64,000 nucleotides of DNA from Tubulanus polymorphus. Taxonomy: Eukaryota > Animalia > Nemertea. Location: positions 11,844,088 through 11,908,087 of the forward strand of contig NC_134031.1 of NCBI RefSeq assembly GCF_964204645.1, in the 5' to 3' direction. How positions within the stretch are numbered: the stretch's first letter is position 1; every line of letters starts with the position of its first letter. The notes under the pieces were generated by a model. It saw only the letters and a program-made list of their open reading frames with translations. It did not search any database and was not told the origin of the DNA. Positions 671 through 64,000 of the stretch are shown here, in pieces. The position numbers and the translations under genes are program-made.

Positions 671-758
671 AGTAATTGGAAGATATGGGTTTCATACCAG
701 AGTACTAGAGTACTAAACACCACTCATCACCACAAGTAATTTTTTTTCCTTATAAATG
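671..758 (+). repeat. Left TIR of Polinton-A, running to the ATG of pPolB
   Basis: Reverse complement of 53407-53486 apart from an 8-bp AGAGTACT duplication and a few substitutions. Confidence 0.9.
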
Positions 759-6136: not shown

Positions 6137-8795
6137 CGATACCCGAAAAATCTATGATCGAATTATCGAAGATCAAATAGCGCGTGGATTCATCGAGTCG
6201 ATCCACGAGGAAAACGAATCCGAAGGTCATTATATACCGTACCACTCGGTGAAGAAAGACTCAGCTACAACACCAATTCGCGTCGTCTACGATTGTAGCT
6301 TCCGTACGCGTCAGTCTCCGAGTTTAAATGACTGCCTGGAAAAAGGACCGCTACTGCTTAACGATCTTGGTTCGATCTTGATGAACTTTCGTACATGCGA
6401 CGTTGGACTTAGTAGCGACATCGAAAAGGCCTTCCTTCAAGTGGGCCTAGCCGAGCCAGACCGGAAATTCACGAAATTTTTCTGGCTAAGCGATCCAAAC
6501 GACCCCGAAAGCAAATTCATTACGTATCAATTTAAATCTGTATTATTCGGAGCAGCGTGCTCGCCGTTTATTCTCAATGCCGTCATAAAATCAGATTTGG
6601 AGCACGGTAGCTAACGATATGAAATCGAGCATATACGTAGACAACGTCGTTACGTCGGTGAAAGACGAATCGACAGCGATCGATTATTACCATAGTGCGA
6701 ATCGGATGATGTCCGACGCAGGATTTAAACTATGTGAGTGGACTAGTAACAACGAAAACCTCAGACATATTGCGAGTAAAGACAACTTATTGAACGGACA
6801 TGACGTTGTCAGCAACCTAGGACTCCTGTGGGATGTCAATCAGGACAGGCTTAAATACAAACAAGCGATCGAGCATAGCGAACCAGAAATTATTACGAAG
6901 CGCGAAATCGTCAGGAGCGTGGCGAGTCTCTATGATCCGTTAGGACTGTTATCACCGGTTCACATCAAATCAAAAATATTCATCCAAGAATTATGGAAAG
7001 CGAATGTCTCGTGGGATGAATTATTACCAGACGAGGTGAGCAATAACTGGAAAACTTTGTACCGCGATCTACAAAATGCGAGAAAAATAACGATTAACCG
7101 GAAGTATTTTTCTGCGCCGTCGGAGGATACCGATACTGAGTTACATTGCTTTGTGGACGCGAGTTCACGTGGCTACGGAGCCACCGTTTATCTACGTCAA
7201 GGGAAAAACACCGCGCTTGTCATAGCGAAAAACAGAGTTGCACCCGTTAAACAGCTCTCGTTACCGCGCCTCGAGCTAATGGCCGCCGTCGTCGGCGCCC
7301 GTTTGATCAAATATTCATTCGATGCGCTTAATCCATGCTACAATTTCAGCAAAGCGATTATCTGGTCCGATAGCGAGATAGTCCTAAGTTGGACTAGGAG
7401 TGAAAATCGACTTCCGTGTTTCGTTCAAAATCGGGTGCACGAGATAAACTCCTTGAATCTAGACAATCTCGATGTGGAATTGAATTACGTACCGACTCAA
7501 GATAATCCAGCGGATCTACTAACACGCGGTATAACCACTCATCAACTGGCCAATTCAACACTATGGTGGCACGGGCCCGACTGATTGAAAGTCGGCGATT
7601 GGCCAGTCTCGCGATTTCAAGCCGATAACGAAATTAAAACTGATGAATCTGTCGACGAGACTACCATGTCGATACAACACGAAAAGTTAGAAAAAGCGGG
7701 TATCTTAAAGATCATTGATCCGGAAAAATATGGATCGTTGACCGAACTCGTGCGTGTTACCGCTTATTTCCTCAGATATTTACATAATCTGAGGAATCCG
7801 GCCGATCGGGTTAGCGGGGAACTCACCGCCGATGAGATAAAAACAGCAGAAAACAAATGGGTCATGGACTTACAGAAAACATACTTTAAATCTGAATTGA
7901 ATCAATTGACAGACCAGAAACTCAAACGCGGTAACCTGGTCAAACAACTGAAAATCTTTATCGATGACAGGGGACTTATTCGATGCGGCAGTCGTGTGCA
8001 AAATTCGTCTTTACCGTACGATGCCAAATTTCCCATTCTATTACCAGATCACCATATTACGCGTTTGATCGTGTTGTTTCACCACAGGAGGTGTAAACAT
8101 ATAAGAATCGGCGGGACTGTTACTGCTATCAGGCAAAGATACTGGATACCGAAAATTAGACAAGTCGTAAAATCAGTTCTCAGGAAATGTGTTACGTGCG
8201 CTATAGTACGAGGCTCCGCCTACTGCAGACCTATACCAACGCCACTTCCAATTTCGCGCGTTACGGATGCTCCGCCCTTTACTGTTACCGGAGTAGATTA
8301 TTCAGGCGAAATTTGGGTCAGAGGCACGTCTGACAAGCGCCATAAACATTACATTTGTCTGTTTACATGCGGCACCACGCGAGCAGTCCATCTCGAATCA
8401 GTCATTAATATGACACCTGCCGCGTTTATTCGAGCATTCCGGAGATTCGTTTCGCGTAGATCGTTACCGCATGAACTGATCAGTGACAACGGGTCATACT
8501 TTCTAAAATCTTGCGTAGAGATAGAAGAAATCGTCAATTCGCCGATCGTCGCGAGATATATGGCGAACAATCGAATCAGATGGACATTCATTCCCAAACG
8601 AGCCCCTTGGTTCGGGGGATTCTGGGAAAGGATGATAGGCGTAACGAAAGAATGCCTCAGAAAGATTCTCGGTAGAAGCATCGTCACGGACGATGAATTA
8701 CGAACTCTCTTGTGTGAAATTGAGGCTACGATCAACGATCGACCTCTCACGTATGTGTATAGTACGGAAGACGAGCCTCTTCCCTTATCTCCGTC
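6137..8795 (+). pseudogene. pol: BEL pol (RT, RNase H, integrase), disrupted
   Basis: ORFs 5994-6614, 6619-7584 and 7585-8907 carry RT, RNase H and rve motifs in BEL order. Confidence 0.92.
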
Positions 8796-9063
8796 AGTAA
8801 TAGGGGTAATAGGCTTTCAGATCAAAGGTCGAACGGTCGAGCTCGTAAAAAATGAAAAACATAAAAATAATAACAATTTCTACTTGAATTACTCGCGAAA
8901 CTCATAAAAATGAAAAATAAATTCTCACACGCTCGAATTTATTTTTCATTTTTATGAGTTTCACTCCTAATTCAAGTAGAAATTGTAATTATTTTCATGT
9001 TTTTCATTTTTTACTCACCCGCCCGTTCAACCTTTAACCCGAAAGCCTATTACCCCTATTACT
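8796..9063. repeat. 268-bp imperfect terminal palindrome (129-bp arms, 10-nt loop)
   Basis: Arms aligned by hand: 15 mismatches, no gaps; loop TCACACGCTC. Confidence 0.95.
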
Positions 9064-9145
9064 CTTAGAATATTCATATATATATGAATAACATTTAAAT
9101 CATTGAACTTCTAAAATCAATTTTAATAAAAAATATAGTATTAAA

Positions 9146-9397
9146 ATGGAAGCAAATAAATACTACTGCCCAACATGTAATATCGATATAGATAAATCCC
9201 AAAAAGCAAGACACAATAAAACTAGAACACATTTAGAAAATAAATTGAAACTAGAATATTTACAGTTATATTCAGAACAGTTAACAAAAGCAAAGAAATT
9301 TATTGAATTATGGAATAATGATCCAAATAATGAACAATACGTTGAGGAATTTGATATCAAGGAATCGAAAGAACTTATCAAAAGCAACGGAGAATGA
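9146..9397 (+). CDS. 83-aa chimeric ORF: TIR-encoded Zn finger (as in the pPolB N-terminus) plus an HNH-gene-like C-terminal tail
   Basis: First 38 aa match 24366-25067; LQLYSEQLTKAKKFI..W matches the tail of 44818-45093. Confidence 0.6.
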   Translation: MEANKYYCPTCNIDIDKSQKARHNKTRTHLENKLKLEYLQLYSEQLTKAKKFIELWNNDPNNEQYVEEFDIKESKELIKSNGE

Positions 9398-9476
9398 AAA
9401 AGGATGACGTTGATCGAAGAAATGGAAGAGGATTCTAAAATTATTAACCAATTTAGTAAAAAAATACGTATAATAA

Positions 9477-10130
9477 ATGGAACCAGAACAACCACAAACT
9501 ATAAATATTACAAATAACACTGGTGTTATAAATATATATTACAAAAAGTGTTCTAAATGTGAATTAGATAAATTAGCTTTAACAGAATTTAGTAAGCGTA
9601 AGATTAGCAAAGATGGTTTTCAATATTGCTGTAAAACTTGTACTAAACTATATACCAAACAATACCGAGAAGATAATATAGAACATTATAATTATTATAT
9701 GGCAGAATATATGAGAGAAAGATATCAAACAGATCTTAATTTTAGATTGAAACAATGCTTAAGATCTAGATTAACACAATTATTCAACAAAGAAACACAT
9801 TCAGAAACACTATCTAATTTATTGGGTTGTTCAGATGAATTTCTCAAATCATGGATAATATATCAATTCGATGATAAAATGAATATAGATAATTATGGTG
9901 AATACTTTCATATTGATCACGTGTTGCCGATTTCTAAATTTGACATGAGTGATGATTATAATAAGAAGCTAATCTGGAACTGGAGAAATTTAAGACCTTT
10001 AGAAAAGAAAGAAAACATAATTAAATCTAATAAACTAGATATACAGTTATATTTAGATCAACTGGATAAAGCAAAGACATTTGTTGAATTATGGAACTCA
10101 ACACATAATGAAAAATACGTTGAATGTTAA
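9477..10130 (+). CDS. HNH endonuclease with N-terminal CxxC/CxxC Zn ribbon, giant-virus-like
   Basis: KKCSKC...SKDG...CKTC; LLGCS.EFL; MNIDNYGEYFHIDHVLP; NLRPL.KKEN..KSNK. Confidence 0.85.
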   Translation: MEPEQPQTINITNNTGVINIYYKKCSKCELDKLALTEFSKRKISKDGFQYCCKTCTKLYTKQYREDNIEHYNYYMAEYMRERYQTDLNFRLKQCLRSRLTQLFNKETHSETLSNLLGCSDEFLKSWIIYQFDDKMNIDNYGEYFHIDHVLPISKFDMSDDYNKKLIWNWRNLRPLEKKENIIKSNKLDIQLYLDQLDKAKTFVELWNSTHNEKYVEC

Positions 10131-11289
10131 ACGCTTAGAGAACCGGTTTCTCTCGATCTATGTCAAACCGCCTGTATGTAATTGTATTAGGTTGTTTACA
10201 AAAAACATCTGTGCTGTATTTCATATTCAGTTGAATGGGGCGCACCTCATTTGAATATTGATCGAACGTGCTATTTCGTTTGAAAAGGATTAATCAATTA
10301 TATTACAAAGGAAGGAACATCTGTTGCACCAGACAGTGTTTAGCTAGTGAATAACTGGCAGTTATAAGCGCGCAGCACATAAGCATAGGAACGTATAGGA
10401 TATTCTCTCTATAAACACAATTTTAGGAGGTTACAGTTATAAATGTAAGTACTGTTTTTGTTGTTATTAAGGCGTTGGAAAACGCTAAACATGTAAAACT
10501 TATCCTGGTAAGATGAGCCACAAAATGGTCATGTTTAAGTGTTGTAATTAATATTTTACAACTACAACTTCAAGTTAGTTTTATTCTACGTTAGATATTT
10601 ATCTTTTAGATAACAAAATGAAGGCTATTGAATCAAGAAAGTGAAGATAGATGGATGTGGAATCAGAAATTATGGATATTTCAACTCATGAGACTGTAGC
10701 AGTTTAGCCATACTGTATAGGCTTCCAATGCATTACGTTTGCTGGAATTTCAATTGTGTCATTAAGCTGTTGTTAATGACACATAGTGACAGATGTTGTA
10801 TTATACTTTATTGATTCCTGCATTCCACGCATACCTTACCGCTCGGCTGCCGAGCGGCTTGGAATGTGGAAATCGATAATGATTGTAGAATGAAATATAT
10901 GTATTTATGAAATAGTATTTCCACCAGTCGTTTCTTTGAATTTATTTTCAGTTTTAGGATTTATCATCAAGAATCCGAAATGACTTATCTGGACAGTTAT
11001 AGTTACTGCTCCTAATAGATAGACAATAGTAGTGAGATAATCTAAATCCTAATTTAAATAAAATATAATAAAAAAACAATAACTTCAACTAGCTAGTGAA
11101 TTCTATTATATTTTTAATATTTTCTTTTCAAAAGAGAATACTTTATATTTTGAATAGATTCAAATAGAAATTCTTTAAATTCAAATAGCTAGTATCAGTA
11201 GTCAATACTAGAGTTCTTTAACTTTAACTATCTAGTATCATTTGAAGAATACTTATAATATTTTTTTTTGCATTTTTTCTCTAATATAA

Positions 11290-11889
11290 ATGTCAAAGAA
11301 ATCTAATAAGAATAGTATTGATATTGAAAAAACATTAGATGATTTAGGTATTAGTGATAATAAAGATACAGTTGTTTCTAATTCTATTCAAGTTAATAAC
11401 AATATTGATTATGAATACTATTTATATTGTAAGCATCATCTAGAACTATTGATTGCCGGTGGAAAAACTAAAGAGTTTTTAACTAAGACTACTTTTCAAG
11501 AATTAGATGCTATGAAACCCGATAAAGTAATAAAATATTTTAAGATTTATGAAGAGGCAAGATTATCTAAAATAAATGATTCTATTTCGAATGGTATTGT
11601 CAAATGTTATTCTAAGTTATGTAACCAGTTAATACCAATTGATGATGAAAATAAATTATATAATGATTTGAAAAATGACTACTTAGTTATGACTGAATTA
11701 CAAAAATGGGTTGGTTACGCTTCATTCCAATTAGGATCGGTTATGACATTAATTTCTACTGGCGTCATAACATTTTCGAACATCAAGCCTATGGAATATA
11801 AATCAGGTAAGAACGAAACAGATGTACTACAACCAAACATCGAAACAGAAGATGAATCAGAACAAAAATTAAGTAAAATAAATGAGTGA
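11290..11889 (+). CDS. Conserved Polinton protein of unknown function (~200 aa) with hydrophobic C-terminal segment
   Basis: Homologous to 43915-44517 and 51147-51752. Confidence 0.8.
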   Translation: MSKKSNKNSIDIEKTLDDLGISDNKDTVVSNSIQVNNNIDYEYYLYCKHHLELLIAGGKTKEFLTKTTFQELDAMKPDKVIKYFKIYEEARLSKINDSISNGIVKCYSKLCNQLIPIDDENKLYNDLKNDYLVMTELQKWVGYASFQLGSVMTLISTGVITFSNIKPMEYKSGKNETDVLQPNIETEDESEQKLSKINE

Positions 11890-12244
11890 TGGAGTTAAGA
11901 AAAAGGCTAGATCCGAGAAACAAATTAAATGGGCAAGAGAATTAGGTAAAAGATCTTCAGAATTAAAAAAAGCTAAGAAAAAGAAATTAACTGATATAAA
12001 TGAATCACCTGATATTGATTCAAATGATAATCCATCTAATTCTTCTAATGCCGGAAGTAATTATAAATTATATATTACAATTGGATTAGTAACAGTTATT
12101 ATATTATCCGGTGTAATATATAAATCAAAATTCAAATCTGATGATAAAGATGATTCCAATGACAATCGGAAACCTATTATACCAGAAAATAAGTCAAATC
12201 ATAAAGTCATTGAAACTAAATCTAAATTATTATTAATGGATTAA
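11882..12244 (+). CDS. 120-aa single-pass membrane protein with basic N-terminus
   Basis: LYITIGLVTVIILSGVIY; homologues at 43560-43922 and 51700-52041. Confidence 0.78.
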   Translation: MSDGVKKKARSEKQIKWARELGKRSSELKKAKKKKLTDINESPDIDSNDNPSNSSNAGSNYKLYITIGLVTVIILSGVIYKSKFKSDDKDDSNDNRKPIIPENKSNHKVIETKSKLLLMD

Positions 12245-12250
12245 AATAGA

Positions 12251-13327
12251 ATGAAAAAAGAACAATATTTAAGAGATTTATATTATAACCCAGAAAGTGA
12301 AGTATCATATTCTAACGTTTCAGAATTATGGAATAAAATTAAATCTGATAATGGTGGTATAAAATATAGTGAATTAAAATCATGGTTACAAAATCAACCC
12401 ACATATCAAATTCATAAAAAGATGGATAAAACTTATTTAACAAGAAAAGTTATGGTTTCATATATCGATCAACAATGGCAAGCTGATTTAATTGATATGA
12501 AGAACTTAGAAGAATACAACAAAGGATATTTCTGGATACTGAATGTTATAGATATATTCAGTAGATACGCATGGAGTATCCCGATTAAAAATAAAACCGG
12601 TATAGAAGTTACAAATTCTTTCAAATTAATATTTAAAGAAGCTATCCCAGATAAAATACAATTTGATGAAGGTAAAGAATTTTATAACAAACATTTTAAA
12701 AAACTATTAATTGATAACGATGTAGAATATTTTTCAACACATTCAGATAAAAAAGCATCTGTTATAGAAAGATTTAATAAAACATTGAAAACTAGAATGT
12801 GGAAATATTTCACCGCTAATGAAACATATAAATATATCGATGAGTCTATAAATATATTAGATGATTTAGTTAAAGGTTATAATAATTCTAAACATAGTTC
12901 TATAGATATGAAACCTATACAAGCTAGAAAAGAAGAAAATTCAGAAATAGTTTGGAATAATTTATATGGAGCATTTGTTACACATGATTTTGGAGAACCT
13001 AAATTTAAAATAGGACAACACGTTAGAATTTCTAAATATCGAAAAACATTTTATAAAGGTTATACCCCTAATTTTACTGAAGAAATATTTAAAATTAAAA
13101 AGATAATATTAATGTTTGATTTAAAAGATGAAGAAATATTAGGTTATTTCTATGAACAAGAATTATCATTAGTACCAAATCCAGATGAAATAGAATACAA
13201 AATAGAAAAAGTATTGAAAACAAAAACTCTTAAAGGAAAAAAGTATTCTTTGGTGAAATATGAAGGATATGATGATAAATTTAATGAATGGATTTTATCT
13301 AGTAAAATTAAAAGAATAAATGAATAA
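12251..13327 (+). CDS. int: Retroviral-like (rve) integrase with C-terminal chromodomain
   Basis: WQADLIDM, IDIFSRYAW, QFDEGKEF, IERFNKTLK; chromo YKIEKVL...LVKYEGYDDKFNEWI. Confidence 0.95.
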   Translation: MKKEQYLRDLYYNPESEVSYSNVSELWNKIKSDNGGIKYSELKSWLQNQPTYQIHKKMDKTYLTRKVMVSYIDQQWQADLIDMKNLEEYNKGYFWILNVIDIFSRYAWSIPIKNKTGIEVTNSFKLIFKEAIPDKIQFDEGKEFYNKHFKKLLIDNDVEYFSTHSDKKASVIERFNKTLKTRMWKYFTANETYKYIDESINILDDLVKGYNNSKHSSIDMKPIQARKEENSEIVWNNLYGAFVTHDFGEPKFKIGQHVRISKYRKTFYKGYTPNFTEEIFKIKKIILMFDLKDEEILGYFYEQELSLVPNPDEIEYKIEKVLKTKTLKGKKYSLVKYEGYDDKFNEWILSSKIKRINE

Positions 13328-13931
13328 AGATTTATTTATATTTGAACCTCATAATATGTTAGTTACTGGTGTAACCAATTGTGGTAAAACACACTTCATA
13401 TTATATTTATTAGAAACTATTTATAAGAATCATTTTGATAATATAATATTATTCTGTCCTACATATGAAATGAATAAAACATATAATAGAGATATAGTTA
13501 AGATAAAAAAGTTTATTATATTAGACCCTAAAACAGTAAAAGAAAATTTAGATAATTGTATTAAAATAGGAATTGATACTTATAAAGGATCTAATACATT
13601 ATTTATTATCGATGATTGCGCAAATTTACATGATTCTGAAATTAGAGAAAGTGAGTTATGTTATTTAGCTTTCTCTGGTAGACATTTTGGGATAACAACA
13701 TGGGTTTTAAATCAGAAATATAATTCAATTGTGAAAGATTTTAGAGAGAATATAAGATTTCTAGTTTTATTCTACAACAAAGATAGAAAATCTATGCAAC
13801 AATCATTGGAAGAAAATCAAATTATACCTCCTGAATTACATGATGAATATATGAATAAATTAAAGAATAATAAAGGTTCAAAATTATTACTGAGACTACA
13901 ATTTCCATATGAATATAAATTTATAAAATAA
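13320..13931 (+). CDS. A32/FtsK-like DNA packaging ATPase
   Basis: Walker A GVTNCGKT, Walker B LFIIDD, GRH motif, Q sensor. Confidence 0.92.
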   Translation: MNKDLFIFEPHNMLVTGVTNCGKTHFILYLLETIYKNHFDNIILFCPTYEMNKTYNRDIVKIKKFIILDPKTVKENLDNCIKIGIDTYKGSNTLFIIDDCANLHDSEIRESELCYLAFSGRHFGITTWVLNQKYNSIVKDFRENIRFLVLFYNKDRKSMQQSLEENQIIPPELHDEYMNKLKNNKGSKLLLRLQFPYEYKFIK

Positions 13932-13982
13932 CTATTTGTATACCTATGTATTATATATGTATTAGATATGTATTATATACCT

Positions 13983-14563
13983 CCCCTAATGTCTTTATTA
14001 TCTTTAGTACTTTTAGTACATAAAGAATAAATCTTTATTTTATTAGTAGTGAATAAAATAAAATAGAACTACTAAACTACTAAAGATAATAAAGACATAA
14101 CAAACACATAGATTTATCATTACTGAATCAAATATATATAATAAATATGTGAGATAAATAAATCTATGATATTTATTACATCTATATGTGTTTTGTTATG
14201 TCTTTATTATCTTTAGTACTTTTAGTACATAAAGAATAAATCTTTATTTAATTAGTACTTAGAAAAATAAATATATAAATAATTTTTATAAATGATAAAT
14301 CTATGATATTTATCATTATTGAAACAGATATATATAATAAATATGTGTGATAAATAGATTTAATTATTGAAACAGTAATATATAAAATCCATCAGATGAA
14401 TAAATATAATTATTGAAACAGTGTTATATACATATTTATGTCTTTATTGTCTTTAGTAGTTTAGTAGTTTTAAAAATAATTTTATTCACTACTAATAAAA
14501 TAAAGATTTATTCTTTATGTACTAAAAGTACTAAACTACTAAAGACAATAAAGACACAAGGGG
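13983..14563. repeat. AT-rich nested inverted-repeat (fold-back) region between convergent genes
   Basis: About 120-bp terminal inverted repeats bounded by CCCC/GGGG, plus an internal direct copy at ~14197-14250. Confidence 0.7.
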
Positions 14564-14583
14564 TATTATATTCATATTTTAAA

Positions 14584-15795
14584 TTACTTTTCTGATTCTA
14601 ATTCTAAAAACAATTTGCGCCATGCAACTCTTAATTCTTGCGATCTTCTTTCACCTAATAGTTTAAAATGATAACCATTACCATTCAAACCCTTAACAAA
14701 AAATTCATAAGTTAAATAAATATATTGGTTTAATTTGTCTTCACTTATATTTTTATATTCATTTTTTGCTTCATTTCTTATTTTATTTATAACATCCTGT
14801 GAAAAATCTTCATAACTATAGTATTGAATTATTTCATCAAAGTTATCACTTATATTATCATTAGCAGCAACTTTTTTCAATTCTGTTAAAAAATCTCTCC
14901 TTTTAAATTTGATGAAATAATATATGCCCCAATAATTATTTAGATCAATTTTTATAAGCGTCCGACCAATTTTAATATCTGATAATACTTGTTTTGGATT
15001 ATTTCTTACATAATCGATAAAAATTGATCTATATAATTTCCTATGATCATTATTTTCGATATCAAAAAATGCAGATGGTACTCTATAAAGGTAATTTAAA
15101 TCAGCAGCTTTTATTGTATGTTCAAAAGAATTATCATGTTTAATTCTATCTTTAGGTAATACAACAACATTACACTTTTCACATATATTTCTTTCTATAT
15201 TATCCAAATGTATCTGTGTTAATTTATGCTTTGAAAAATTACTACGACTTATATATTTATCACATTCTTCACAATATTTATCTTCTTTAACATTATCATT
15301 ATCAATTTCACTATCATTATTTAATTCATTTAAAATCTTATTCTTATTTTTCTTATGCTTGAGTGAATTAAGATGAGTTGCCCAATTCTTATAACTTTTA
15401 TACTGTTTACATACGTCACAATATTTTTCATTTGTCTTTTTTGATTCAATATCATATGTAGAGGGTATATTATAAGATGTAGATGCTGTTACATCTTCTA
15501 TTTTATATTCAATATCATTCTTATCTTCTATTTTATATTCAATATCATTCTTATCTTCTATTTTAGTTTCAATATTATCTTCTATTTTATATTCAATATC
15601 ATTCTTATCTTCTATTTTAGGTTCAATATTATCTTCTATTTTTGTTTCAATATTCTTATCTATTTTACTTATTCTATATTTGAATTGATTAAAGTAATCT
15701 CCAAAATACTTACTGTATTCATCATAAGGTAATATATAATATATATCTGATATCATTTCACTTGGAGTTTGTATTTCATATATTCCACCTTCCAT
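14584..15795 (-). CDS. Variable protein with IEYKIEDKND-type repeats and three C2H2-like Zn fingers
   Basis: Intact 403-aa ORF; CxxC...H..S/T..H motifs; positional equivalent of 39640-40464. Confidence 0.75.
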   Translation of the reverse strand: MEGGIYEIQTPSEMISDIYYILPYDEYSKYFGDYFNQFKYRISKIDKNIETKIEDNIEPKIEDKNDIEYKIEDNIETKIEDKNDIEYKIEDKNDIEYKIEDVTASTSYNIPSTYDIESKKTNEKYCDVCKQYKSYKNWATHLNSLKHKKNKNKILNELNNDSEIDNDNVKEDKYCEECDKYISRSNFSKHKLTQIHLDNIERNICEKCNVVVLPKDRIKHDNSFEHTIKAADLNYLYRVPSAFFDIENNDHRKLYRSIFIDYVRNNPKQVLSDIKIGRTLIKIDLNNYWGIYYFIKFKRRDFLTELKKVAANDNISDNFDEIIQYYSYEDFSQDVINKIRNEAKNEYKNISEDKLNQYIYLTYEFFVKGLNGNGYHFKLLGERRSQELRVAWRKLFLELESEK

Positions 15796-15827
15796 TTATT
15801 ATATATATTTTTATTAAAGTTAAAATT

Positions 15828-17075
15828 TTAATACATAACACTATCTAATTGTGAATTTACAATATTTAATTGCGCGTCAGATATAATATAAATGTGCATT
15901 TTGAAATTTTTGATTCCTTTATTCTTTGTCATGAATAATTGTATTCCATCTTTTGTATTTTGTAGTTTTTTTCCAGAACCATGTAATAAGTTATCTTCAG
16001 TTGTTCTAAAATCTAACCATAATGCGTATTTATTACCGGTATAATAATCAATTTGATTAATGTTACAATTTTCAGATGATTTTACTTTTTCATTCATAAA
16101 ATGTTTTCTAATTTCTGGCCATTGATCCATCATTCTCATTCCTTGACAAAATATTTTATTCGCTATACCTTCAATAGTTATTTCTACTTTTGATATTTCA
16201 GGATTATAATAATTGTCAACATTTATTGCGCCATTAGTATACGTTCCATTGGTAAAAAATATTAATATACCTTTAATAGATCTTCTAGGAAAGTTAATAT
16301 TCTCATTAATTATTTCATCATTTGCATTAATAGTTACAGTTTTAAATTTATCAATATAATCATATAATAATGAAAATCCTTGATTGTATTGAGTTTGAAT
16401 TATACTTGAAATATTTTCATCAGTTACTGTATCATATTCTAAACATATATTTGATAATTTATAACTCATATCTTTATTAACACTAGATAATACAATTTCA
16501 TTTACAGGAGCAAATGTTATCTCAAATATAACGTCTTCTTGAATTGCGTATTTATATAAAGGTGCATTATTATTTATCAATTCAAAGTCTAATGGAATTT
16601 TATATTTGCTTCCATATATACTTTTTATCAATTTATCTACATCATTAGTTAATATTGCGCTATTAGCTTCTGATCTTAATTTATTTTGGTTTTCTGATTG
16701 AATTCCTTGAAATATCATATTATTTCTATTTTCTTTAGTTAACCATAAATCTTTATAATGCATAAATAAATTATAATCATCTAATGAGAAAACTGTTTCT
16801 GGACCAATCTTTATTGTTAACTTTTTAATCAAATATCTTCCAACATTATCAACGACATAATTATTATTATTACCGATTACTTTTATATCGGCTGATAAAT
16901 AAATACTATTTGGAACATAAAAAGTATTTTGTGTTAATCGAGGGATTCTAACGTATAAAGTTTCATCGGGATTAATATTTGAAGGGTTATGAGTAATTAT
17001 ATGATGTGATCTTTCTGCTTTAATAGCATTAGATATTCTATGATTCTTAGAAGGATTGATATAACTCCCACTCAT
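15828..17075 (-). CDS. Major capsid protein (putative double jelly-roll)
   Basis: Intact 415-aa beta-rich ORF, highly conserved between A, B and C; ITHNPS.I...L.VR.P.L, N.GR.LIKKLTIKI and KYALWLDFRT resemble invertebrate Polinton MCPs. Fold not verified. Confidence 0.75.
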   Translation of the reverse strand: MSGSYINPSKNHRISNAIKAERSHHIITHNPSNINPDETLYVRIPRLTQNTFYVPNSIYLSADIKVIGNNNNYVVDNVGRYLIKKLTIKIGPETVFSLDDYNLFMHYKDLWLTKENRNNMIFQGIQSENQNKLRSEANSAILTNDVDKLIKSIYGSKYKIPLDFELINNNAPLYKYAIQEDVIFEITFAPVNEIVLSSVNKDMSYKLSNICLEYDTVTDENISSIIQTQYNQGFSLLYDYIDKFKTVTINANDEIINENINFPRRSIKGILIFFTNGTYTNGAINVDNYYNPEISKVEITIEGIANKIFCQGMRMMDQWPEIRKHFMNEKVKSSENCNINQIDYYTGNKYALWLDFRTTEDNLLHGSGKKLQNTKDGIQLFMTKNKGIKNFKMHIYIISDAQLNIVNSQLDSVMY

Positions 17076-17095
17076 TTATTTAACAAAAAAATTAA

Positions 17096-18808
17096 TTATT
17101 TATTTTTTGATATCATATTTACTAAACCAAAAATAATAGCACTTACAACTGTAATTAAAAATAAAATAATATGTTCAGCAGCAAAGTTAATAATGTTTCC
17201 TACAGATTTCAATATAAAACCAACAATTGAAGCAATAACTCCTGGTAAAGCTGCAGCAGATTTTTTAGATAGTTCCCATAAATATTTTGCTAATTTCTTT
17301 AAACCATCCTTAACTTTATCTTGTATAGAATTATTACCTGGAGGTTTATCTGGTTTATTGGGAGTGGGAGTAGGAGTAGATTTTAAAGCATTTGATATTG
17401 CTAAACCAATTGTTGTAAATAACATAGTTACAGCTGTTAGAATTGAAAGAATTGTTATTCCTTCTAACTTAAATAATAACTTTATTCTGTCTTTTAATGA
17501 TATTTCAGAATCTGGTTTTATCAACAAATCTTTAAAAATAACTTTTAATTTTTTAATATGATTAAGATCATATGATTTTAATAATATATCTCTTTCTTCT
17601 TTTTGTAATTTTATGTTATATTCTAAATCATCTATTTCTTTTACTAAAGCTAACTTTCTGTTTTCATAATCAGCTTCATAAACTACTTGATGATCTCTAT
17701 TTAATTATAATTGTTTTAATTCTTCATCTACATTAACTAATTCTTTTTCTAACATGGTTATTTTAGAAAATCTCATCTTAATATTAGCAATTTCATCAGC
17801 TGATACTTGTATACCTTTAATTTCTCTACGTATTTGTTCAGGAAATGCTTCTAATTCTTCATCAGTTAAATTAACAAATCCTTTTTCTAGTAAATATTGC
17901 AGTCGATTTATTCCAGTTTCAGAACCAGATGTATCTGATATACTATTCATCAGTTCTTCTGAATCTCTTAATCTATCAATTTGTTTTTCTAATTGTAATT
18001 GATTTGAATAATTATCAATTGGTTGAGTGTCTCTTCTCGATGTTTCGGGTGTTGAAGATCTTAATCTATCTAATCGATTTCTATTCTCTTCCATTTCTGG
18101 ATCAAAATCAGTAGGATTTGGATTTTTAAATGGATTTTTAAATGGTGAATATTTGTTTATATCAATTTTAGGAATTGGTTCTTCTTTATTTATTCTATCG
18201 AGTGCATTCCATATAATTCTGAGAAATTCTGTGCCACCTTTTGAACGTTCAATTGTAGATCTTGCTCGCATTTCAGGTTCATAAATATTTTCTTGACCCA
18301 TTTTAGATAATTGAATTGATACAATTTTGTTATTTAAATTAACATTATAATACCATGAATCATTTTTAAATTCTAAATTATTTTTGAAATATGGGTCATC
18401 CTTAAAAATTTGTTCTACAACATCTTCAGTATCAATTTCATCTATTACAACTGTTGGTAATAATTCGTTAACAATTGTATCTGTTACTCTAGATTTCATT
18501 TTAAATAATTCCATAGGTTTATCAGGATTTTTTTCGTGTTGTTTTACTAATAGTTCCATAAATTCTTTTCTTTCTCTTCTAGTTGAAATTCTACCAATTT
18601 CAGGAGCTTTTAAATATTTATTTAATCTTTCACGTAATTCGGGATCATCATCATCATAATCATCATCTTCACCTTAATTAGTATTATATGCTGTTTCATC
18701 ATCATTATCAATATTAGTTTCTACATCATTATAATCATTATCAATATATCCTTCATTATTATTTCCTATTTCTCCCATTTCATAATCTTCTCCACCTTCT
18801 ACATCCAT
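17096..18808 (-). pseudogene. Large acidic/coiled-coil protein with C-terminal membrane segments; internal stops
   Basis: Starts MDVEGGEDYE at 18808; includes ORFs 17705-18559 and 17096-17527; homologous to 36819-38331. Confidence 0.7.
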
Positions 18809-18824
18809 TTATATAATAAAAAAA

Positions 18825-19271
18825 TTAAAATTTAAAATATAATATTCCTCCGATTACAATTCCTATACAAGTTATAGCTAATTTAGTATTTTCATGGGAT
18901 TTATTATCATCATTTAGTTTAATTATATCATGTTGAATAATATCAGTTCTATTATTTTCTGATGTATTGTAATCTTTTATTTTGGAATCATTATCCAATT
19001 TAATATTATTAGTTTTAGTTTCTGTTGATTGAATATGTTTTTTATTTTTTTCACCTTCCATTAATTTTGGAGCAGTGATAATCTTTTTATTTATATCATT
19101 TAATCCAAATGAATTATTTATTGTTGCAGTTTTAATTAGATTATTGTTATGTCTTCTTTGTTCTCCTAATGAACTATTTTTATCAATATGTTTAAATAAA
19201 TAACCACCACCAGTAAATGCCAAAGCGTTAACAATTGCCGATCCTATAATAGTTATAATTGCAGAAGCCAT
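18825..19271 (-). CDS. Deletion-generated fusion ORF
   Basis: N-terminus equals 34537-34661; C-terminus equals ~36482-36801 of copy C. Confidence 0.8.
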   Translation of the reverse strand: MASAIITIIGSAIVNALAFTGGGYLFKHIDKNSSLGEQRRHNNNLIKTATINNSFGLNDINKKIITAPKLMEGEKNKKHIQSTETKTNNIKLDNDSKIKDYNTSENNRTDIIQHDIIKLNDDNKSHENTKLAITCIGIVIGGILYFKF

Positions 19272-19295
19272 TTATTTAGCAAAAAAATTATGCAT

Positions 19296-19517
19296 TTATA
19301 TGGGAGGAATATATTTTTGTTTTTCCAAATAATCAATAGTTAAATTAGATAAAGTAACTGCCAATGTTAATTTTAAAATATCATTTATATCAAATCTATC
19401 AACATTAACACTTCCCATTTTGAATACTTTTTTTAATACCATTGAATAACCAACAGTTCCAACTGATAGTAATGCGCCATTATATAATCCAGTTATTATC
19501 CACTTATTATTACTCAT
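19296..19517 (-). CDS. 73-aa small hydrophobic protein
   Basis: Homologous to 34291-34512; preceded by TAAATG. Confidence 0.72.
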   Translation of the reverse strand: MSNNKWIITGLYNGALLSVGTVGYSMVLKKVFKMGSVNVDRFDINDILKLTLAVTLSNLTIDYLEKQKYIPPI

Positions 19518-19859
19518 TTATTTATCAAAAAAATTACTATCATCAAAATATTTAGTTAACTTATTTACGATTAATTCAACATTTATATCATTACTAGTTT
19601 CATTTGTATATATTTCAATATCATCGATGATAAAATCTTCATCTAATTCATAAAATCTTAAAGATTCTCTAATTAAATTAGTAATCTTTTCTACATTTAA
19701 AGTTTCTTCATCTATTGTTGTTTCATACTCAAATGTTGTTTCATTAGAAAATGCAATATTTTTGATATGTGTAATTACATCATTAATGTTAAATTTCATT
19801 TCTTTCTCATGTTTAAAATCAAACCCAAAACATATACTCGGTCCAACAGTTATATTCAT
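19518..19859 (-). CDS. 113-aa acidic protein of unknown function
   Basis: Homologous to 33936-34290. Confidence 0.7.
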   Translation of the reverse strand: MNITVGPSICFGFDFKHEKEMKFNINDVITHIKNIAFSNETTFEYETTIDEETLNVEKITNLIRESLRFYELDEDFIIDDIEIYTNETSNDINVELIVNKLTKYFDDSNFFDK

Positions 19860-19875
19860 TTATATAATGAAAAAA

Positions 19876-20628
19876 TTACTCTTTACATCTTATAATTAAT
19901 TCATATATCACAGGAAAGTTATTCAAATCAATTAAATATCCATTGTGATTTCTTATTTCTAACTTGAAATTATTAAATTTTGGAATACAAGGTTTGAAAT
20001 CACATTCTGTTAAATTATAATTTATTTGAGTTCCAAATTGTTTAACATTTTTTAGCGGTTAAATATTTAGAATACTAGAATTACAAATTGTTTCTTTAGT
20101 TGCTTCGAAAGTTTTTGTAGGCTCGATTAAATTGCAATAAATATAAGTGTGTAAAAGGTATTATATTTGAGCTGCCTTCTGCGTTTCCAGTAACTGTAAG
20201 CGGTTTAATTCCTAACATTTTAGCCAGTTTTTGTTTACCATAAATTTATGTTGTTCATTAGATATCTTTATTCTAATTTTATTAGTATTATCAATTTTAT
20301 TAAATTAAATTTCAAATACAGAAGTGCCCCCGATTTTCAACCGGGCTCTTCTATTAATTTCCTGCGCTAATGATTCTAAATTATATAATCCTGGTTTTAA
20401 AAATATATGAAACCACTTATCTTTATTTCTCATATAAATCATAAACCCTCTATGTTCAAAAGTTTTATCCGATACATTGTAAAAAGAATTACATAAACTT
20501 ATATTAACTAATTTTAAATCAACACAATTCTTAAATTCTCTATCTAATTGTACTAGTAAATTATGAGATTTATAATTTGTAAGTTTTCTAGAATCAACAA
20601 ATATTCTGTATTCTTTTAATTCCACCAT
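19876..20628 (-). pseudogene. Minor capsid (penton-like) protein, disrupted
   Basis: IFVDSR...VQLDREFKN..LKLVNISLCNSFYNV and later YIYCNLI, consistent with single jelly-roll mCPs; stops and frameshifts. Confidence 0.65.
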
Positions 20629-20645
20629 TTATTTTACATATTTTC

Positions 20646-20999: not shown

Positions 21000-21028
21000 T
21001 TTAATAACATATTTTTATTAAAATTTGA

Positions 21029-24000
21029 TTAACACGTTAGAATTCTTTTCATTATCTCGTTCTCTTTTGTTTCTTCTCTTTTAAATTTTAAGTATTCATC
21101 TAAATTACAACCATAAGCAACTGTATGAATTCCATCATCTAAAATATATCTTTTATCATCAAATGGGTTTAGACTTATCTTTTCAATTTCTTCAATAAAC
21201 ATTTCATGATATTCAGATCTTAAACATCTCATCTTATGTTTTCTAACTTCTTCATTGAATATACAATTTATGTAATCTTTGAAATGAATATTCTTTTCTA
21301 CTACACTTTTGGTTATTCCTTTTAACTTTTTAGCTTCATGTTCTTTAGTTTTATATGAATACATTTTAGATCTAATACCGATGAATTCAATCATTTCTTC
21401 ACCACCTAATTCATCTTTGAATTTACCGGGAACTTTTTTATTATCATTGCTAAACAATTCATGATCTTTAGGATAGTTACTAAAATCAAAATGATGTTTT
21501 AATGTTTTTAAATCATCAGTTATGTTATCAGTTTTTATCTTTAATATGTAAGAATCTGTATCAAAATATAATATTTCTATATGTTTTTCTCCAAAAAGTG
21601 GTTGTAATACATTATAATAGAATTCATACATTAGTAATTTTGATAATTCTAAAACTGAAGCGCCAACATAGATTGGTGTATTAAATTTCATTGATGTTCT
21701 TCTCATTTTAACTGCAGCTAAATTTTCATCAAATATTCTGTTACCAATGAACTTAGGATATGATTGTAAATGCCTTATCCTTTTACCATTACTGACTAAC
21801 TCAATATCATTTCTATTTCTAATATTTTCACAAGTCTTACCATAGAATGCATTATTCATTAACTTGAAGAAATCTTTTTCGAAATCAGTTTTAGCTTCAG
21901 TTCTCTGTTTGGTGTTAAAATCTATATATTTTTCCAACCATTTAGATTGACTAAATGAAATATATCTATGTACTTTTTTTAGGATCATTCCTTGTTTTAG
22001 ATAAAACTTCAACATTCTATAATGTACTACATAATTATATTTATCTTCCTGAGTTACCATTAACTTTTCTGTAAGAATATGATTTTCGGGTTTAATTCTT
22101 TTTTGGTAATTTGATAATTCTTCATGAGTTACAGTTTTATGTTCGGGACAGTTAGCTAGATTTCTAGATTTAAATTTAATATGTTCAGGATATTCTAAAT
22201 CTACAACAAAGAAGTAACCAGTATCTGAATCATCTGCAATATCTAGGATTCTTTTCTTCCAATCAAATTCATCATTATTTTCAGTCTGTAAAACTTCACT
22301 TATTTCAAATACTCCATAAGGTTGTGGTTCCATCATTGCCCAACCATACAAATTATTTGCATCTATATATAATAACTTATATCCGGGGTTATCATTTACA
22401 TTGAAATATCTATCACCTAATACACCCGGAACTCCTCCTCTTATAGATTTTTCAAATAATAATAATTGATCTATATTTGTTAACAAATCCATTTTTATAT
22501 CTGTAAATTTTAATCCACAATCCCATGTTAATCCTGGTGATGAATAACAATGACAAGGATCAATATTGAAATATTTTAGGTTTACATCTCTAAACCTTTC
22601 GAATATATCGGTTAATAATAATACATCTGATTTTAAATATAAATCTACTAATTGCCCATGATTTTCTATTTTGAAATGATTCCAAATATTCAATGTTCTA
22701 TTATAGACTTCATCTTTAACATATTCATTTTTTAATTCATCATAGAATTGTTCTTTCAATAATTCAGTTATGTTAAAATCATTATGATTTTTATAGAAAG
22801 AATATGGAATTGCTCCTTTATATCTCATTAATTTAAAATCATCATTATTTGGGTAATATTCTTTTAATATCTTTAATTCATCATCAACTAATGATTTTGA
22901 TAAGTTATCTAATGAACTATTTAAAAATCTATATGAATCTATAAATCTTAGGCAACCAAATTGGAATGATATATAATTCTCAGGTGTTTTAGCTAACATT
23001 CTAAATTTATAAGTTGGTATTTTATCTTTTGATCTATTTGAATTTAATATTTCTATTTCATTATTGATTTCTTCTATTTTATGGCATAACTGTTTGATGA
23101 ATAAATGTGCATCATATCCTGATAGATTATGAAATATAACTGGTATAAAGTTAATTTTCTTAGCTTGTAAGTTACAATTCTCATGTGCGGCGCCCCTAAA
23201 CTTTCCATTCAAATGATCATGGTCTCTTACTTTTTTATCTTTATAATTAAATATCTTTTCACAATAATAACATTTACCTGCAAACGCAAATTCTTCTTTA
23301 TCTTCTTCTGTCATCATAATTTCTATATTTTTATTTAACTTTTCATTAAATTTTATTTCATATTCAATTAATAAGTCACAAAAATGATTGATAACATTTT
23401 CATTTCTATAATGATAATATTCACTTTCAATTAGTTCTGGATAATCAGATTTTATATATAACCCGAAAGCAGCAGCTGATTGATGAATCTTTTTAATAGT
23501 ATTTGTTTTTGGTGGTTCATCTGAAAAATCATTTTCATTAGAATTTAATTTCTTTCTTTTATAATATATTTCTTTTTTATCTTGATCAGTTAATTCTTTA
23601 TTTAATGATTCAAAATCTCCATATATAACAAATGGTACTTTATTTTTGTAATCATATTTTTTGAATTCTAATATTTTATCTTTTTCATTTGGTAAAACTA
23701 ATTTACAATAATCATGATTTTCACATAATTGTTTATGATTTAATAACGTACTTTCATTACTGAATCTATGTAAACATTTTCTACAAAGATATATTTTATG
23801 GTGATCATTTTCTGATTTAAAAAATAAATCGATTTGTTTAATCTACATATAATGATTCTCATAATATAGTATATCTATAACATCGTTTGAATCATAATCT
23901 TTTGATAGATATAAAGGTTCTAATGTATAATGTTTTATGTTGTTACCTTTTGTATTTGGTAATTTGATTAAATCAAATACATTTATCTTTATATTATTAT

Positions 24001-25067
24001 CTCTTTCTTTTTTTGGGATGTTTTTAATTCTAACAGGATACTTATCTATCTTATAATTATTTTCAAATGGTTTATAATGAGTTAATCTAAAACTATGTGT
24101 AATATCTTCTGTTTGGGTGTAAACAACTTATTATAGCCCATAGAAAACATTTATCATCTTCATTTTGTACATTTATTACAGCATTAGTTTTAAATGGTAG
24201 TTTGATATAACTCGATGCTTCAATATCTGGTTCTTTATAATATGATACATTATTTTCATCGATTGGTTTTGATTTCGTTAACTTATTATATTTTGTGTTA
24301 TAAACATGTAAAGTCATAAATATTATTTCATCAAATATTAAACCAGATCCTTCAAAATATTTCTCTTATATTTTAGTTTTAACTTCATTATAACATTTAT
24401 CTAATTTATCATCTATATGTTGTTTTGAAATAATATGTTGTGAATGAGAATTTATATTATAAATTGGTTTATCTTCAGATTTTATAAACTTTACTTTAAC
24501 TGATATACTTATTTTAGGATATTCAACATCAGTAATTATTTTTATAATATTTTTAATATTTTCTAAATGTTTTTTATTTTCTTCTAATGTTTTTCCTTTA
24601 TGAAATTTAAACTCGATAGCTGCTGGACCAATATCACTTTTAAATGCTTCGGTTATCTCTATATCTTTTTTATTATCTAATGAATTAATATAATTTCTTA
24701 CATCTTCCATGTATGGTCTTTTATTGTTTAATTTATTTCTTATTCTTTTAATTGTCTTATGTTTCTTATCATTATCTTTATCAAAATAATCTTCACCTAA
24801 AATATCATTATTCTTATTTCTAATATGACTTTTAGATTTTAAATGTTCATTATAATACCTTTTATCACTGAATGATTGATTACATGTATCACATTTGTAT
24901 GTTTCTTTTTCATTCTTTAATTCATCTAATTTAGTTTCTAATATATCATCTTCATATTCTAGTTTCAATTTATTCTCTAAATGTGTTTTAGTTTTATTGT
25001 GTCTTGCTTTTTGGGATTTATCTACATTGATATTACATGTTGGACAGTAGTACTTATTTGCTTCCAT
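21029..25067 (-). pseudogene. polB: Protein-primed DNA polymerase B, intein-free; N-terminal part has a stop and a frameshift
   Basis: ORFs 24366-25067, 24093-24317 and 21029-23317; YIDANNLYG, KLMNNAFYGK, uninterrupted YFDTDS, SKMY. Confidence 0.95.
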
Positions 25068-25554
25068 TTTAATACTAAATTTTTTATTAAAATTGATTTT
25101 AGAAGTTCAATGATTTAAATGTTATTTATTTATATGAATATTTTAAGAGTAATAGGGGTAATGGGCTTTCAGGTTAAAGGTTGAATGGTCGAGTTCATTA
25201 AAAAACAAAACATTAAAAGTAATTAAAAACTATAATATATTTTCATAACCGTGTGCATTTCAGTTGAATAATAGAATAATTATTATTATTTGAATATATT
25301 TGATTATATGAATTTGTGTATTGTAAATAAATCAATTGGTCGCGGAGCGGAGCGGTAGCGAAGTGGAGCGACCAATTGATTTATTTACAATATGCTTTTT
25401 AAATTATTGATATCTTAGAATAAATATTTAGTTTTAATATAAAATGCACGCGGTTATGAAAATATATTATAGTTTTTAATTACTTTTAATGTTTTGTTTT
25501 TTAATGAGCTCGACCGTTCGACCTTTGGTATGAAAGCCCATTACCCCTATTACT
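24954..25554. repeat. ~600-bp TIR, near-identical to 46930-47527; outer 407 bp (25148-25554) form an imperfect palindrome
   Basis: Direct comparison; identity stops exactly after CCCCTATTACT in both copies. Confidence 0.93.
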
Positions 25555-25812
25555 CGCATTAACACATTTGTTAGTGGGCTGCAGCCGTTAGTACAGGGCC
25601 TGTAATTATCAAAACCACTAGTTTTAAAATCCTACCTAAATTACTAATTACCACTTTAATTTCGGTGTGACTATTTCCTGTCAAAGTTGCCTGTTTAGAA
25701 TCTTGACCCAAGCAAATCGAATTAAGTACTAGCACTAAAACCCTAATTTGTCATTGTTTCTGCAATTGTTTACCGATACAGTCTACAGTATTGCCTTTGT
25801 CGTTTCAGCCTA

Positions 25813-32761: not shown

Positions 32762-32790
32762 TCAAATTTTAATAAAAATATATATTATAA

Positions 32791-33144: not shown

Positions 33145-33161
33145 GAAAATATGTAAAATAA

Positions 33162-33919: not shown

Positions 33920-33935
33920 TTTTTTCATTATATAA

Positions 33936-47043: not shown

Positions 47044-47527
47044 TTTAATACTAAATGTTTTATTAAAATTGATTTTAGAAGTTCAATGATTTAAATGTTA
47101 TTTATTTATATGAATATTTTAAGAGTAATAGGGGTAATGGGCTTTCAGGTTAAAGGTTGAATGGTCGAGTTCATTAAAAACAAATATTAAAAGTAATTAA
47201 AAACTATAATATATTTTCATAACCGCGTGCATTTCAGTTGAATAATAGAATAATTATTATTATTTGAATATATTTGACTATATGAATTTGTGTATTGTAA
47301 ATAAATCAATTGGTCGCGGAGCGGAGCGGTAGCGAAGTGGAGCGACCAATTGATTTATTTACAATATGCTTTTTAAATTATTGATATCTTAGAATAAATA
47401 TTTAGTTTTAATATAAAATGCACGCGGTTATGAAAATGTATTATAGTTTTAATTGCTTTTAATGTTTTGGTTTTTAATGAGCTCGACCGTTCGACCTTTG
47501 GTATGAAAGCCCATTACCCCTATTACT
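46930..47527. repeat. Right TIR of Polinton-C; palindrome at 47124-47527
   Basis: Near-identical to 24954-25554. Confidence 0.93.
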
Positions 47528-47734
47528 AATGCGTGGTATATTGAATACAAGCAATAAAGAAATCTAAATCAATGCATCGTTCAACGAAGCTGAACAAGTA
47601 CTAGTGGTAATCATATTTCCACATTTGTTTGCGGTTAACCTGTTTACCGTTCATTGTTCCATAACACTTTGTTATCAAAGTTTGGCCAATAGAAATGAGC
47701 CGAAATGAAAGGTTATGAACGGTCGAATTAAAAA

Positions 47735-63019: not shown

Positions 63020-64000
63020 ATCAGTCGCTCCGCTCCCAATTGATTTAATTTCAATACGCAATATAATAGATTTAATCATCTAATCTAATCATATATCTAA
63101 TAAATCTAATAATATTAATTATTCTGTTAATTATTACCTAGGAATACACACGACTATGAAAATATATTAAAGTTTGGAATTAAAATGACCTTTATGTTGG
63201 TTTTTTTAATTCACTCAACCTTTCAACCTCTGATGTAGAACAACACATTTACAATTACTCTAATATTTATATATGAAAATCATATTTATGAATAATATAT
63301 AATGAAATCAATTTCAATAAAAAATTTATGTAATAAATGGAGAGGGAACAAGTATACAGTGAGAGCAACAAACCATTCTTAGATAGAATTAAAGTTACTA
63401 GAAATGCTAAATCTGTAGATTATGAATTTTAAAAGCTAACAGAATAAACAATTCATAAGAAATATTTAATTACTAATATTGAAACAACTACTATAAATAG
63501 TGTAATAAATTAATAATTCATCAAGAAGATGAAGGATTGAAAGGTAATAAGTATAAATTCAGAACACGTTTACCAAATAGATTTCATAGATTATCTAGTG
63601 AAGATCTAGTAGAAGTATGATCTGGTGATTTCGATTTTATAAATTAAGGTAAGAATGAAAAAGGGCGACATGATATAGATTTCAAATAAACAATATGTAA
63701 AATCAATTTTGATAAAAATTTAATATAATTGATGGAACCAAATAAGAAGAACTACTCTCCACATGTAAACACAATATAGATTAATCTCCAAAAGCAAGAC
63801 ATAATACAACTAAAACACATTTAGAAAATAAATTAAAATTAGAATATAAAGATTATATGTTAGAAACTAAATTAGAAAAATTGAAGAATGAAAAAGAACT
63901 ATATAAATGTGTTACATGTAATCAATCATTCAGTAACAAAAGATATTATGAGCAAAATTTAAAATCTAAAAGTCATATTAGAAATATTAATAATGATATT
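63020..64000 (+). mobile_element. Polinton-D fragment: inner arm of the terminal hairpin, decayed SSB-like gene (63337-63689), start of the pPolB Zn-finger region (63732 onward)
   Basis: CGCTCCGCTCCCAATTGATTT...TATGAAAATATATT resembles the reverse complement of 25148-25345; FLDRIK and THLENKLKLEY motifs. Confidence 0.8.

Follow-up and report, generated by a model that had tools for sequence, protein, structure and literature searches.

Strand-biased fold-back palindromes at the termini of a Polinton family in the nemertean Tubulanus polymorphus

The locus described here raises the question of why the two ends of a Polinton carrying its own protein-primed DNA polymerase should be long fold-back palindromes, and in which form such an end would act. 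The window, meaning the whole stretch of 64,000 nucleotides of Tubulanus polymorphus DNA that was analyzed, holds several Polinton copies within the animal sequence. The plus strand of an apparent unit of 16,759 bp (8796-25554) carries an integrase and an ATPase, its minus strand capsid-like genes together with a protein-primed polymerase; another copy, in inverted orientation, extends from about 30117 to 47527. Three full palindromic termini are found: T1 (8796..9063, 268 bp), the left end of copy A, of which the minus strand is the 3'-terminal and better-folding one, and T2 (25148..25554, 407 bp) and T3 (47124..47527, 404 bp), for which it is the plus strand and which share the same apex. 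The hexamer CGCATT to the right of 25554 (25555..25560, minus strand) is the reverse complement of AATGCG to the right of 47527 (47528..47533, plus strand), so that T2 and T3 are best read as ends of one insertion. We infer that they are both ends of copy B, that the insertion duplicated 6 bp of target, and that an inversion between inverted copies rearranged it; T2 would now be joined to copy A through the inversion and 8796-25554 would be a hybrid of two insertions. The split and inverted duplication of copy B points to such an inversion between two inverted Polinton copies. Copy A was inserted into the integrase ORF of a BEL/Pao retrotransposon (7666..8795, plus strand), and its second end is lost in a 31-bp satellite, the flank beyond the lost end lying outside the window; the satellite array (29245-30118) adjoins a second, 5'-truncated polymerase copy (30117-32761), where the other end of copy A would be. 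An ISXO2-like (IS1595) transposase ORF (47744-48655) lies just outside T3, and pieces of a further Polinton copy, about 75% identical and including a relic terminus, occupy 49133-52000 and 63026-64000. The non-palindromic part of the 601-bp TIR (24954..25147, minus strand) is 98.2% identical to 46930-47123 and is also found at 9064-9259; it includes TATAAATA, at a distance of 14 nt from the palindrome's inner end, as well as polymerase codons 1-38. TIRs, AGTAAT ends and the 6-bp target duplication are thus all present, the last as read through the presumed inversion.

The gene content agrees with that described for Polintons/Mavericks: a length of about 16.8 kb, a pPolB with terminal-protein and vOTU domains, an rve integrase, an A32 ATPase, a probable DJR capsid, 601-bp TIRs, a 6-bp duplication, a 5'-AGT end and inward-pointing gene modules (PMC8097293; bioRxiv 10.1101/2023.08.22.554363; PMC11161782). 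The protein-primed DNA polymerase B (21029..25067, minus strand; PF03175, E 2e-15) comprises a zinc finger, a terminal-protein domain, vOTU, an EndoVII-like insert, exonuclease and palm, and is interrupted in this copy by a stop near 24366 and, beyond it, by a frameshift. A relative, L009, encodes an intact polymerase of 1241 aa, 81% identical, in which the vOTU Cys/His are kept. The predicted fold of its residues 1-340 (pLDDT 77) resembles the N-termini of adintovirus, bidnavirus and mavirus polymerases (best E 1e-14) and weakly matches the Y-family little finger (E 2e-3), the fold described for Polinton terminal proteins (PMC11161782); helix-EGSG-strand and Cys motifs are also present in the polymerase copy of the window. 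Judging from this model, the family polymerase keeps its terminal-protein and vOTU domains. The gene order of the relative (L009, 337-7154) is different, with polymerase, HNH, two small genes and integrase on one strand. The retrovirus-like integrase with chromodomain (12251..13327, plus strand; PF00665, E 6e-9) has its counterpart in copy B at 42477-43553 on the minus strand and is followed by the A32-like packaging ATPase (13320..13931, plus strand; PF04665, E 1.5e-11), while a feature at 15828..17075 lies on the minus strand with the capsid-like genes and polymerase. A DJR capsid is probable: the capsid candidate reaches Pfam Capsid_N at E 0.01, below the cut-off, its Atlas features are at 0.97-0.98 with viral clusters (Capsid_N share 14-24%), and viral contigs gave no match to the capsid query. 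No protease family was recovered by Pfam among the 39 + 28 ORFs of the window, whose copies are damaged. The element therefore has what defines a Polinton, apart from the unconfirmed capsid fold and the unfound protease. An intact HNH/endonuclease-VII-like ORF (9477..10130, plus strand) lies just inside T1 and the left TIR; it is broken in copy B (44845-45485), occurs at other positions in the relatives L008 and L009 and has no PDB sequence match. Given its varied positions it is probably a mobile homing endonuclease, and it is also a candidate nickase.

The termini themselves are imperfect palindromes, of 268, 407 and 404 bp for T1, T2 and T3, flush with the terminal AGT as the first-pass annotation of this DNA had proposed. 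In arm-to-arm alignments read on the strand that has its 3' end at the element boundary, the base stem of T1 is perfect over 23 bp, and in all three termini the 3'-OH lies flush at the base of a perfect stem of 23-24 bp, which predicts a paired 3'-OH in the 3'-terminal hairpin. Along stem positions 1-129 of T1 all eight transitions give G.T (24, 26, 28, 35, 45, 47, 68 and 101), and five of seven transversions give G.A (42, 48, 49, 98 and 99), the remaining two being T.T at 77 and G.G at 97; the alignment thus returns the same counts that the annotation had put forward. Its further count of six G.T and one G.A among the first seven mismatches of the terminus at 25148 holds for the plus strand of both T2 and T3, with the correction that the G.T at 26, 28, 35 and 47 are common to all three termini and are hence non-independent. 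Over the full length of T2, including the poorly aligned central bubble and apex, we count 10 G.T, 10 A.G, 7 T.T, 2 A.A, 2 G.G, 1 A.C and 1 C.T. The four common G.T are kept in all three termini despite neighboring changes that are mirrored on both arms; position 16, for example, is changed on both arms, and GAGCG is present in both loops on the 3'-terminal strand, so that the co-variation noted earlier is indeed found. Such mirrored changes can, on the other hand, arise from arm-to-arm copying instead of selection. G.A mismatches of T1 occur as 5'-GA/5'-GA tandems at stem 48-49, 98-99 and 130-131, two of which (48-49 and 130-131) have the form TGAG/CGAG, i.e. the pyrimidine-GA-purine context. 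On the opposite strand the same mismatches become A.C, C.T and C.C. The orientation is identical in the four available ends, T1-T3 and the relic (p 0.125 when taken alone). We had considered that differences between T2 and T3 were post-insertion mutations; this was dropped for the inner arm, as 397 reads carry the T3-type inner arm. A short direct repeat stands at the start of both Polinton families of the window, a 9-mer present twice in T1 (8796-8813) and an 8-mer present twice in the sister element (699-714); repeats of this type serve for slide-back in protein-primed replication.

Counting common mismatches once, 14 of 14 distinct transitions in the well-aligned stems are G.T (p about 1e-4; one-sided 6e-5 under a null of 0.5). 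When 26-28 is taken as a single event the count is 12/12 (two-sided p 5e-4), and when the poorly aligned central bubble of T2/T3 is added it is 16/17. All six distinct stem transversions of the G.A/C.T type are G.A, which as blocks amounts to 4/4 (p 0.125). The sample consists of three full termini and one relic from one genome. Background substitutions between copies, polarized with outgroups and read on the equivalent strand, comprise 41 that would make G.T and 35 that would make A.C (integrase-ATPase 26:19, capsid 13:8, polymerase 1:3, TIR body 1:5; a second outgroup for integrase-ATPase, giving 24:23, was omitted from the sum as non-independent), so that any general strand bias is at most mild; Fisher's test against 14:0 gives p 6e-4. 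In the integrase region A>G reaches up to 1.8 times T>C per base on the strand equivalent to the 3'-terminal one, and under a corresponding null of 64% the 14/14 retains p 0.002, the 8/8 of T1 only p 0.03. The fold of T1 has -110 kcal/mol, equaled by none of 200 dinucleotide shuffles, and its strand difference of -14.3 (DNA) and -35.3 (RNA) kcal/mol is matched by 0 of 150 strand-symmetric simulations each. Folding of both strands, which had been suggested as a check, favors the 3'-terminal strand of T1-T3 by 11-14 (DNA) and 32-43 (RNA) kcal/mol; the 2004 and 1999 DNA parameters give identical energies and were counted as one, and bonuses for sheared G.A and mini-hairpins are unscored. As a control, the long internal palindrome between convergent genes (13985..14565, 580 bp) displays no strand bias, its well-aligned stem having 2 G.T and 2 A.C and its strands folding with -119.6 and -118.2 kcal/mol. 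This palindrome is AT-rich, has internal repeats, lies where the two gene modules converge and is absent there from copy B; palindromes downstream of the integrase are also seen in the relatives L013 (9082-9359), L068 (1733-2475), L035 and L059.

These figures bear on a functionless origin, in which the palindrome began as a copy-back slip or as a captured tiny two-ended non-autonomous copy, is maintained by arm-to-arm copying and owes its bias to strand-asymmetric mutation or repair. The palindrome is itself a two-ended mini-element with several length variants, its arms have about 30% more depth than two arms per TIR would give, T2 arms agree where those of T3 differ, as after conversion, the 3'-terminal strand has the mild A>G excess, and the sister family does without a palindrome. 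It is nevertheless quite unlikely, given 14:0 against a background of 41:35, a G.A excess and tandem-GA blocks that deamination leaves unexplained, an unbiased internal palindrome, and four mismatches and an apex motif that persist across variants down to about 70% identity; host DNA, moreover, tolerates long palindromes poorly. A bias produced by deamination of the displaced strand was rejected as well: by our reasoning the G.T would then fall on the 5'-terminal strand, whereas they are found on the 3'-terminal one.

The linkage of the palindrome to element ends was assessed from read depth, using raw genomic reads of the same species label. Summed depth is 4467 for the outer 54 bp of both arms, 1692 for the TIR body and 832 for the interior, a ratio of 5.4 : 2.0 : 1 where 4 : 2 : 1 is expected from two arms per TIR and two TIRs per element; the 30% excess of the arms may come from GC bias, divergent subfamilies or some short derivatives. 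At 8796, 1827 reads exit the element into varied flanks (agreement 0.35), which implies many insertions, and the inner flank is the same element sequence in all three palindromes. A palindromic MITE living independently of Polinton ends, the explanation that would have undone the first-pass reading, was consequently rejected, as depth ratio and constant inner flank tie the palindrome to the ends of the element; a minority of short derivatives is possible. Read joints reveal further length variants. The joint 8897 to 8962, carried by 124 reads and by contigs of all three other runs, is exactly symmetric and gives a hairpin of about 206 bp, the apex of which is the middle GA block of T1, suggesting that stems grow by modules ending in the same GAG motif. 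At 8944/8954, 81 reads of one run switch strand, as if the apex were carried twice in opposite orientations; the switch is absent from contigs of the three other runs and is either a variant or a library fold-back artefact. There is no loose end behind 9063 among the joints listed, which carries no weight given that T1 is a minority variant.

Whether the selected form is DNA or RNA can be approached through the apex. That of T2 (about 25338-25372) contains GCGGAGC twice, GCGGTAGC and GCGAAGT and is closed by CGGAG/TGGAG; in the 33-nt apex of T2/T3 three exact GCGNAGC/GCGNNAGC motifs (GCGGAGC twice, GCGGTAGC) are found, against none on the complement. At least three such motifs occur in 38 of 20000 dinucleotide shuffles, the motif having been chosen after the sequence was seen, and the motif is absent from T1. 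Mini-hairpins of the GCGNAGC/GCGNNAGC class are described as far more stable as DNA than as RNA, nuclease-resistant and poorly bound by SSB, and are found at ssDNA phage origins and the N4 promoter (PMC13037366), and the pyrimidine-GA-purine context forms sheared G.A pairs in DNA (PMC10085684). Motifs and tandem GA together favor single-stranded DNA over RNA as the selected form, as far as sequence can tell. The alternative is an outward-reading hairpin RNA, a long stem rich in G.U that would act as a decoy or give rise to small RNAs. G.T would there be G.U wobble, RNA parameters put the strand difference at -32 to -43 kcal/mol, and a promoter-like TATA adjoins the inner end of the palindrome, in T1 itself in symmetric form; in T2/T3, however, TATAAATA points inward, to the polymerase, the apex has GNA/GNNA loops that are much stabler in DNA instead of GNRA/UNCG tetraloops, an RNA would not have to be in exact register with the final nucleotide of the element, and Rfam has no match in 8600-48000. 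We regard this explanation as decidedly unlikely.

The first-pass annotation had spoken of Polinton termini in general, which stands for the T1-T3 family and fails for the sister Polinton. The latter, a control terminus at 699..755 (plus strand) with a polymerase region 74% identical and inserted in another integrase ORF, has AGAGTACT twice and only 57 nt to the first ATG, with no long hairpin; the feature thus belongs to the T1-T3 family and not to Polintons in general. A relic terminus (63026..63354, minus strand), a more divergent variant about 70% identical, lacks the outer arm and has an inner arm and a GCGGAGC apex oriented as in T1-T3. The terminal 23-mer has no match in viral contigs. 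The apex 16-mer gave 27 viral-contig matches, all at 52-74% GC and none of them inside a long hairpin, and these were dismissed as chance. Among the 86 related loci considered (3 + 3 viral and 80 of 253 confirmed metagenome loci) none has a terminal palindrome or a recognizable TIR pair, which has no bearing for or against.

Taken together, bias and motifs make selection in single-stranded form, as originally proposed, the most likely explanation, and point to DNA rather than RNA; that the 3'-terminal strand folds as single-stranded DNA is in our estimation probable. The best model, to which we give a probability of a little under one half (about 0.48), is a Streptomyces-like folded 3' cap that is also a repair template, with the tip copied by protein priming. 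The protein-primed polymerase would displace a strand, the last 270-410 bases of which would snap in vivo into a hairpin that G.T, tandem G.A and mini-hairpin motifs stabilize. The cap would provide a local duplex end and a repair template without pairing of two TIRs 16 kb apart, and terminal-protein priming would next start copying at the tip; with one orientation kept in this way, a one-strand bias could accumulate. In the other strand, A.C, C.T and C.C would make both the 5' hairpin and the cruciform in host DNA less stable. Strand displacement frees single strands, and the panhandle that these are commonly taken to form is said to lack direct evidence (PMC11886824). The 3' telomere overhangs of Streptomyces fold with sheared G.A, are protein-primed (PMC4513846) and are repaired on the fold-back (PMC5449611), a precedent for a protein-primed replicon that bears a G.A-stabilized folded 3' end and repairs it in this way. 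The folded cap is opposed by the perfect TIR panhandle, which is thermodynamically better than two hairpins, and by the sister Polinton, which replicates without a long hairpin and indicates that Polintons in general do not need one.

Data on phi29 constrain how such a cap could work. There, origins whose displaced strand carried a 5' single-stranded extension were markedly weaker than blunt ones, and the authors blocked the recessed 3' end because it primes DNA synthesis well (PMC4150772). A fold-back presents a recessed 3' end like that of phi29, so its extension must be blocked or tolerated if the end is merely capped; such plain capping without prior self-extension is possible, albeit somewhat unlikely. 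The same data make two further routes real options: an extension completed by a nick and a protein-primed patch, and asymmetric resolution of the MVM type. In the first of these, displaced strands would self-prime from a 3' hairpin locked by G.T and G.A, the paired 3'-OH being filled in, and the integrase or the HNH gene product would nick the closed end right after the terminal ACT, on one arm only, before a protein-primed patch, so that orientation never flips. This hybrid is rather unlikely; if true, it would combine rolling-hairpin and protein-primed replication on the same end, a replicon cycle that we have not found described.

A parvovirus-like rolling hairpin would go further: the paired 3'-OH primes, a site-specific nick resolves the end, protein priming becomes dispensable, and resolution is either symmetric (AAV, flip/flop) or asymmetric (MVM left end), with arm-specific mismatches marking the arm that is cut. 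It agrees with the 3'-OH lying flush on a perfect stem in three termini, with the efficient priming of a protein-primed polymerase by recessed 3' ends (PMC4150772) and with candidate nickases, namely the integrase, the intact HNH ORF beside T1 and the EndoVII-like polymerase insert. Flip-only left ends are known from asymmetric resolution in MVM/LuIII (PMC1185569), and a rolling hairpin has been proposed for virophage/PLV palindromes (bioRxiv 10.64898/2026.07.28.741278), although in that preprint the palindromes mostly accompany non-pPolB elements. Against it, Pfam finds no HUH Rep/NS1 family among the 39 + 28 window ORFs, the terminal-protein and vOTU motifs are kept in the polymerase, the HNH gene changes place among relatives, and both termini of the integrated copy B were open and full-length, flanked by a 6-bp target duplication. 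AAV-type resolution yields both flip and flop (PMC11575299); each strand would then in turn be the 3' hairpin and no one-strand bias could build up, whereas the four ends have one orientation and a bias that flip/flop would cancel. Self-priming that replaces protein priming, which the first-pass annotation had put forward beside end protection, is therefore unlikely; what survives of that proposal is self-priming with a fixed orientation, MVM-type or as a nick with protein-primed patch, in favor of which the phi29 data on extension of a recessed 3' end speak.

The hairpin of the 3' strand could also be a handle for the integrase, giving a duplex end on a looped-out strand or cruciform for 3' nicking at copy-out, or for protection in the virion. 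Retrovirus-type integrases act on 3' ends, the stem starts precisely where the 6-bp duplication places the integration boundary, and a Polinton model of single-strand excision, as given in bioRxiv 10.64898/2026.07.28.741278, would suit such a role. Cruciform extrusion requires both hairpins, of which the 5' one is weak, and most Polintons integrate without a hairpin; we hold this explanation to be highly unlikely.

The preferred model of a folded 3' cap can be set against known systems. From other Polintons/Mavericks the element differs in that the outer 270-410 bp of each TIR are a fold-back palindrome with a one-strand mismatch bias; the words 'palindrom' and 'hairpin' are used 0 times in the Polinton survey texts searched. 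Endogenous virophages/PLVs of Halocafeteria seosinensis likewise have palindromes in TIRs beside the target duplication, for which hairpin priming was proposed; those are from a protist, 52 nt long in the example given and preferentially associated with non-pPolB replication genes, whereas the palindromes described here are 268-407 nt long and belong to an animal Polinton with pPolB, and strand bias is unmentioned in the available part of that preprint (bioRxiv 10.64898/2026.07.28.741278). In Streptomyces telomeres (Tap/Tpg end patching) replication is protein-primed as well, and about 300 nt of the 3'-terminal strand fold with sheared G.A and allow fold-back repair (PMC4513846, PMC5449611). 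The likeness of palindromes closed by sheared G.A on the 3'-terminal strand is found here at the motif level only; there is one long rod instead of several short palindromes, the proteins are unrelated, Tap/Tpg not being expected in a Polinton, the element integrates, and strand displacement would start from the ends, not from an internal origin. Parvovirus telomeres share the imperfect terminal palindrome, the paired 3' end and conserved mismatches, and MVM-type ends keep one orientation; unlike them, the element, with no Rep/NS1 nickase found, has its own protein-primed polymerase, an integrase, identical ends and a single orientation among four ends. No report of strand-biased terminal hairpins in pPolB Polintons was found in the literature searched, and subscription papers, Repbase, figures and supplements may hold one. 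Terminal palindromes and the hairpin-priming proposal are known already from protist virophages/PLVs, and the one-strand mismatch bias is the part for which the searched literature gave no precedent. Arguments on Polinton replication, and on a single-stranded stage in it, have so far relied on gene content without a demonstration. When a terminal palindrome has its mismatches biased to one strand, this is a sequence footprint of a single-stranded 3' end; it makes the question of Polinton replication testable and connects animal Polintons with three separate ways of handling linear ends, namely panhandle protein priming, end patching as in Streptomyces, and parvovirus hairpins.
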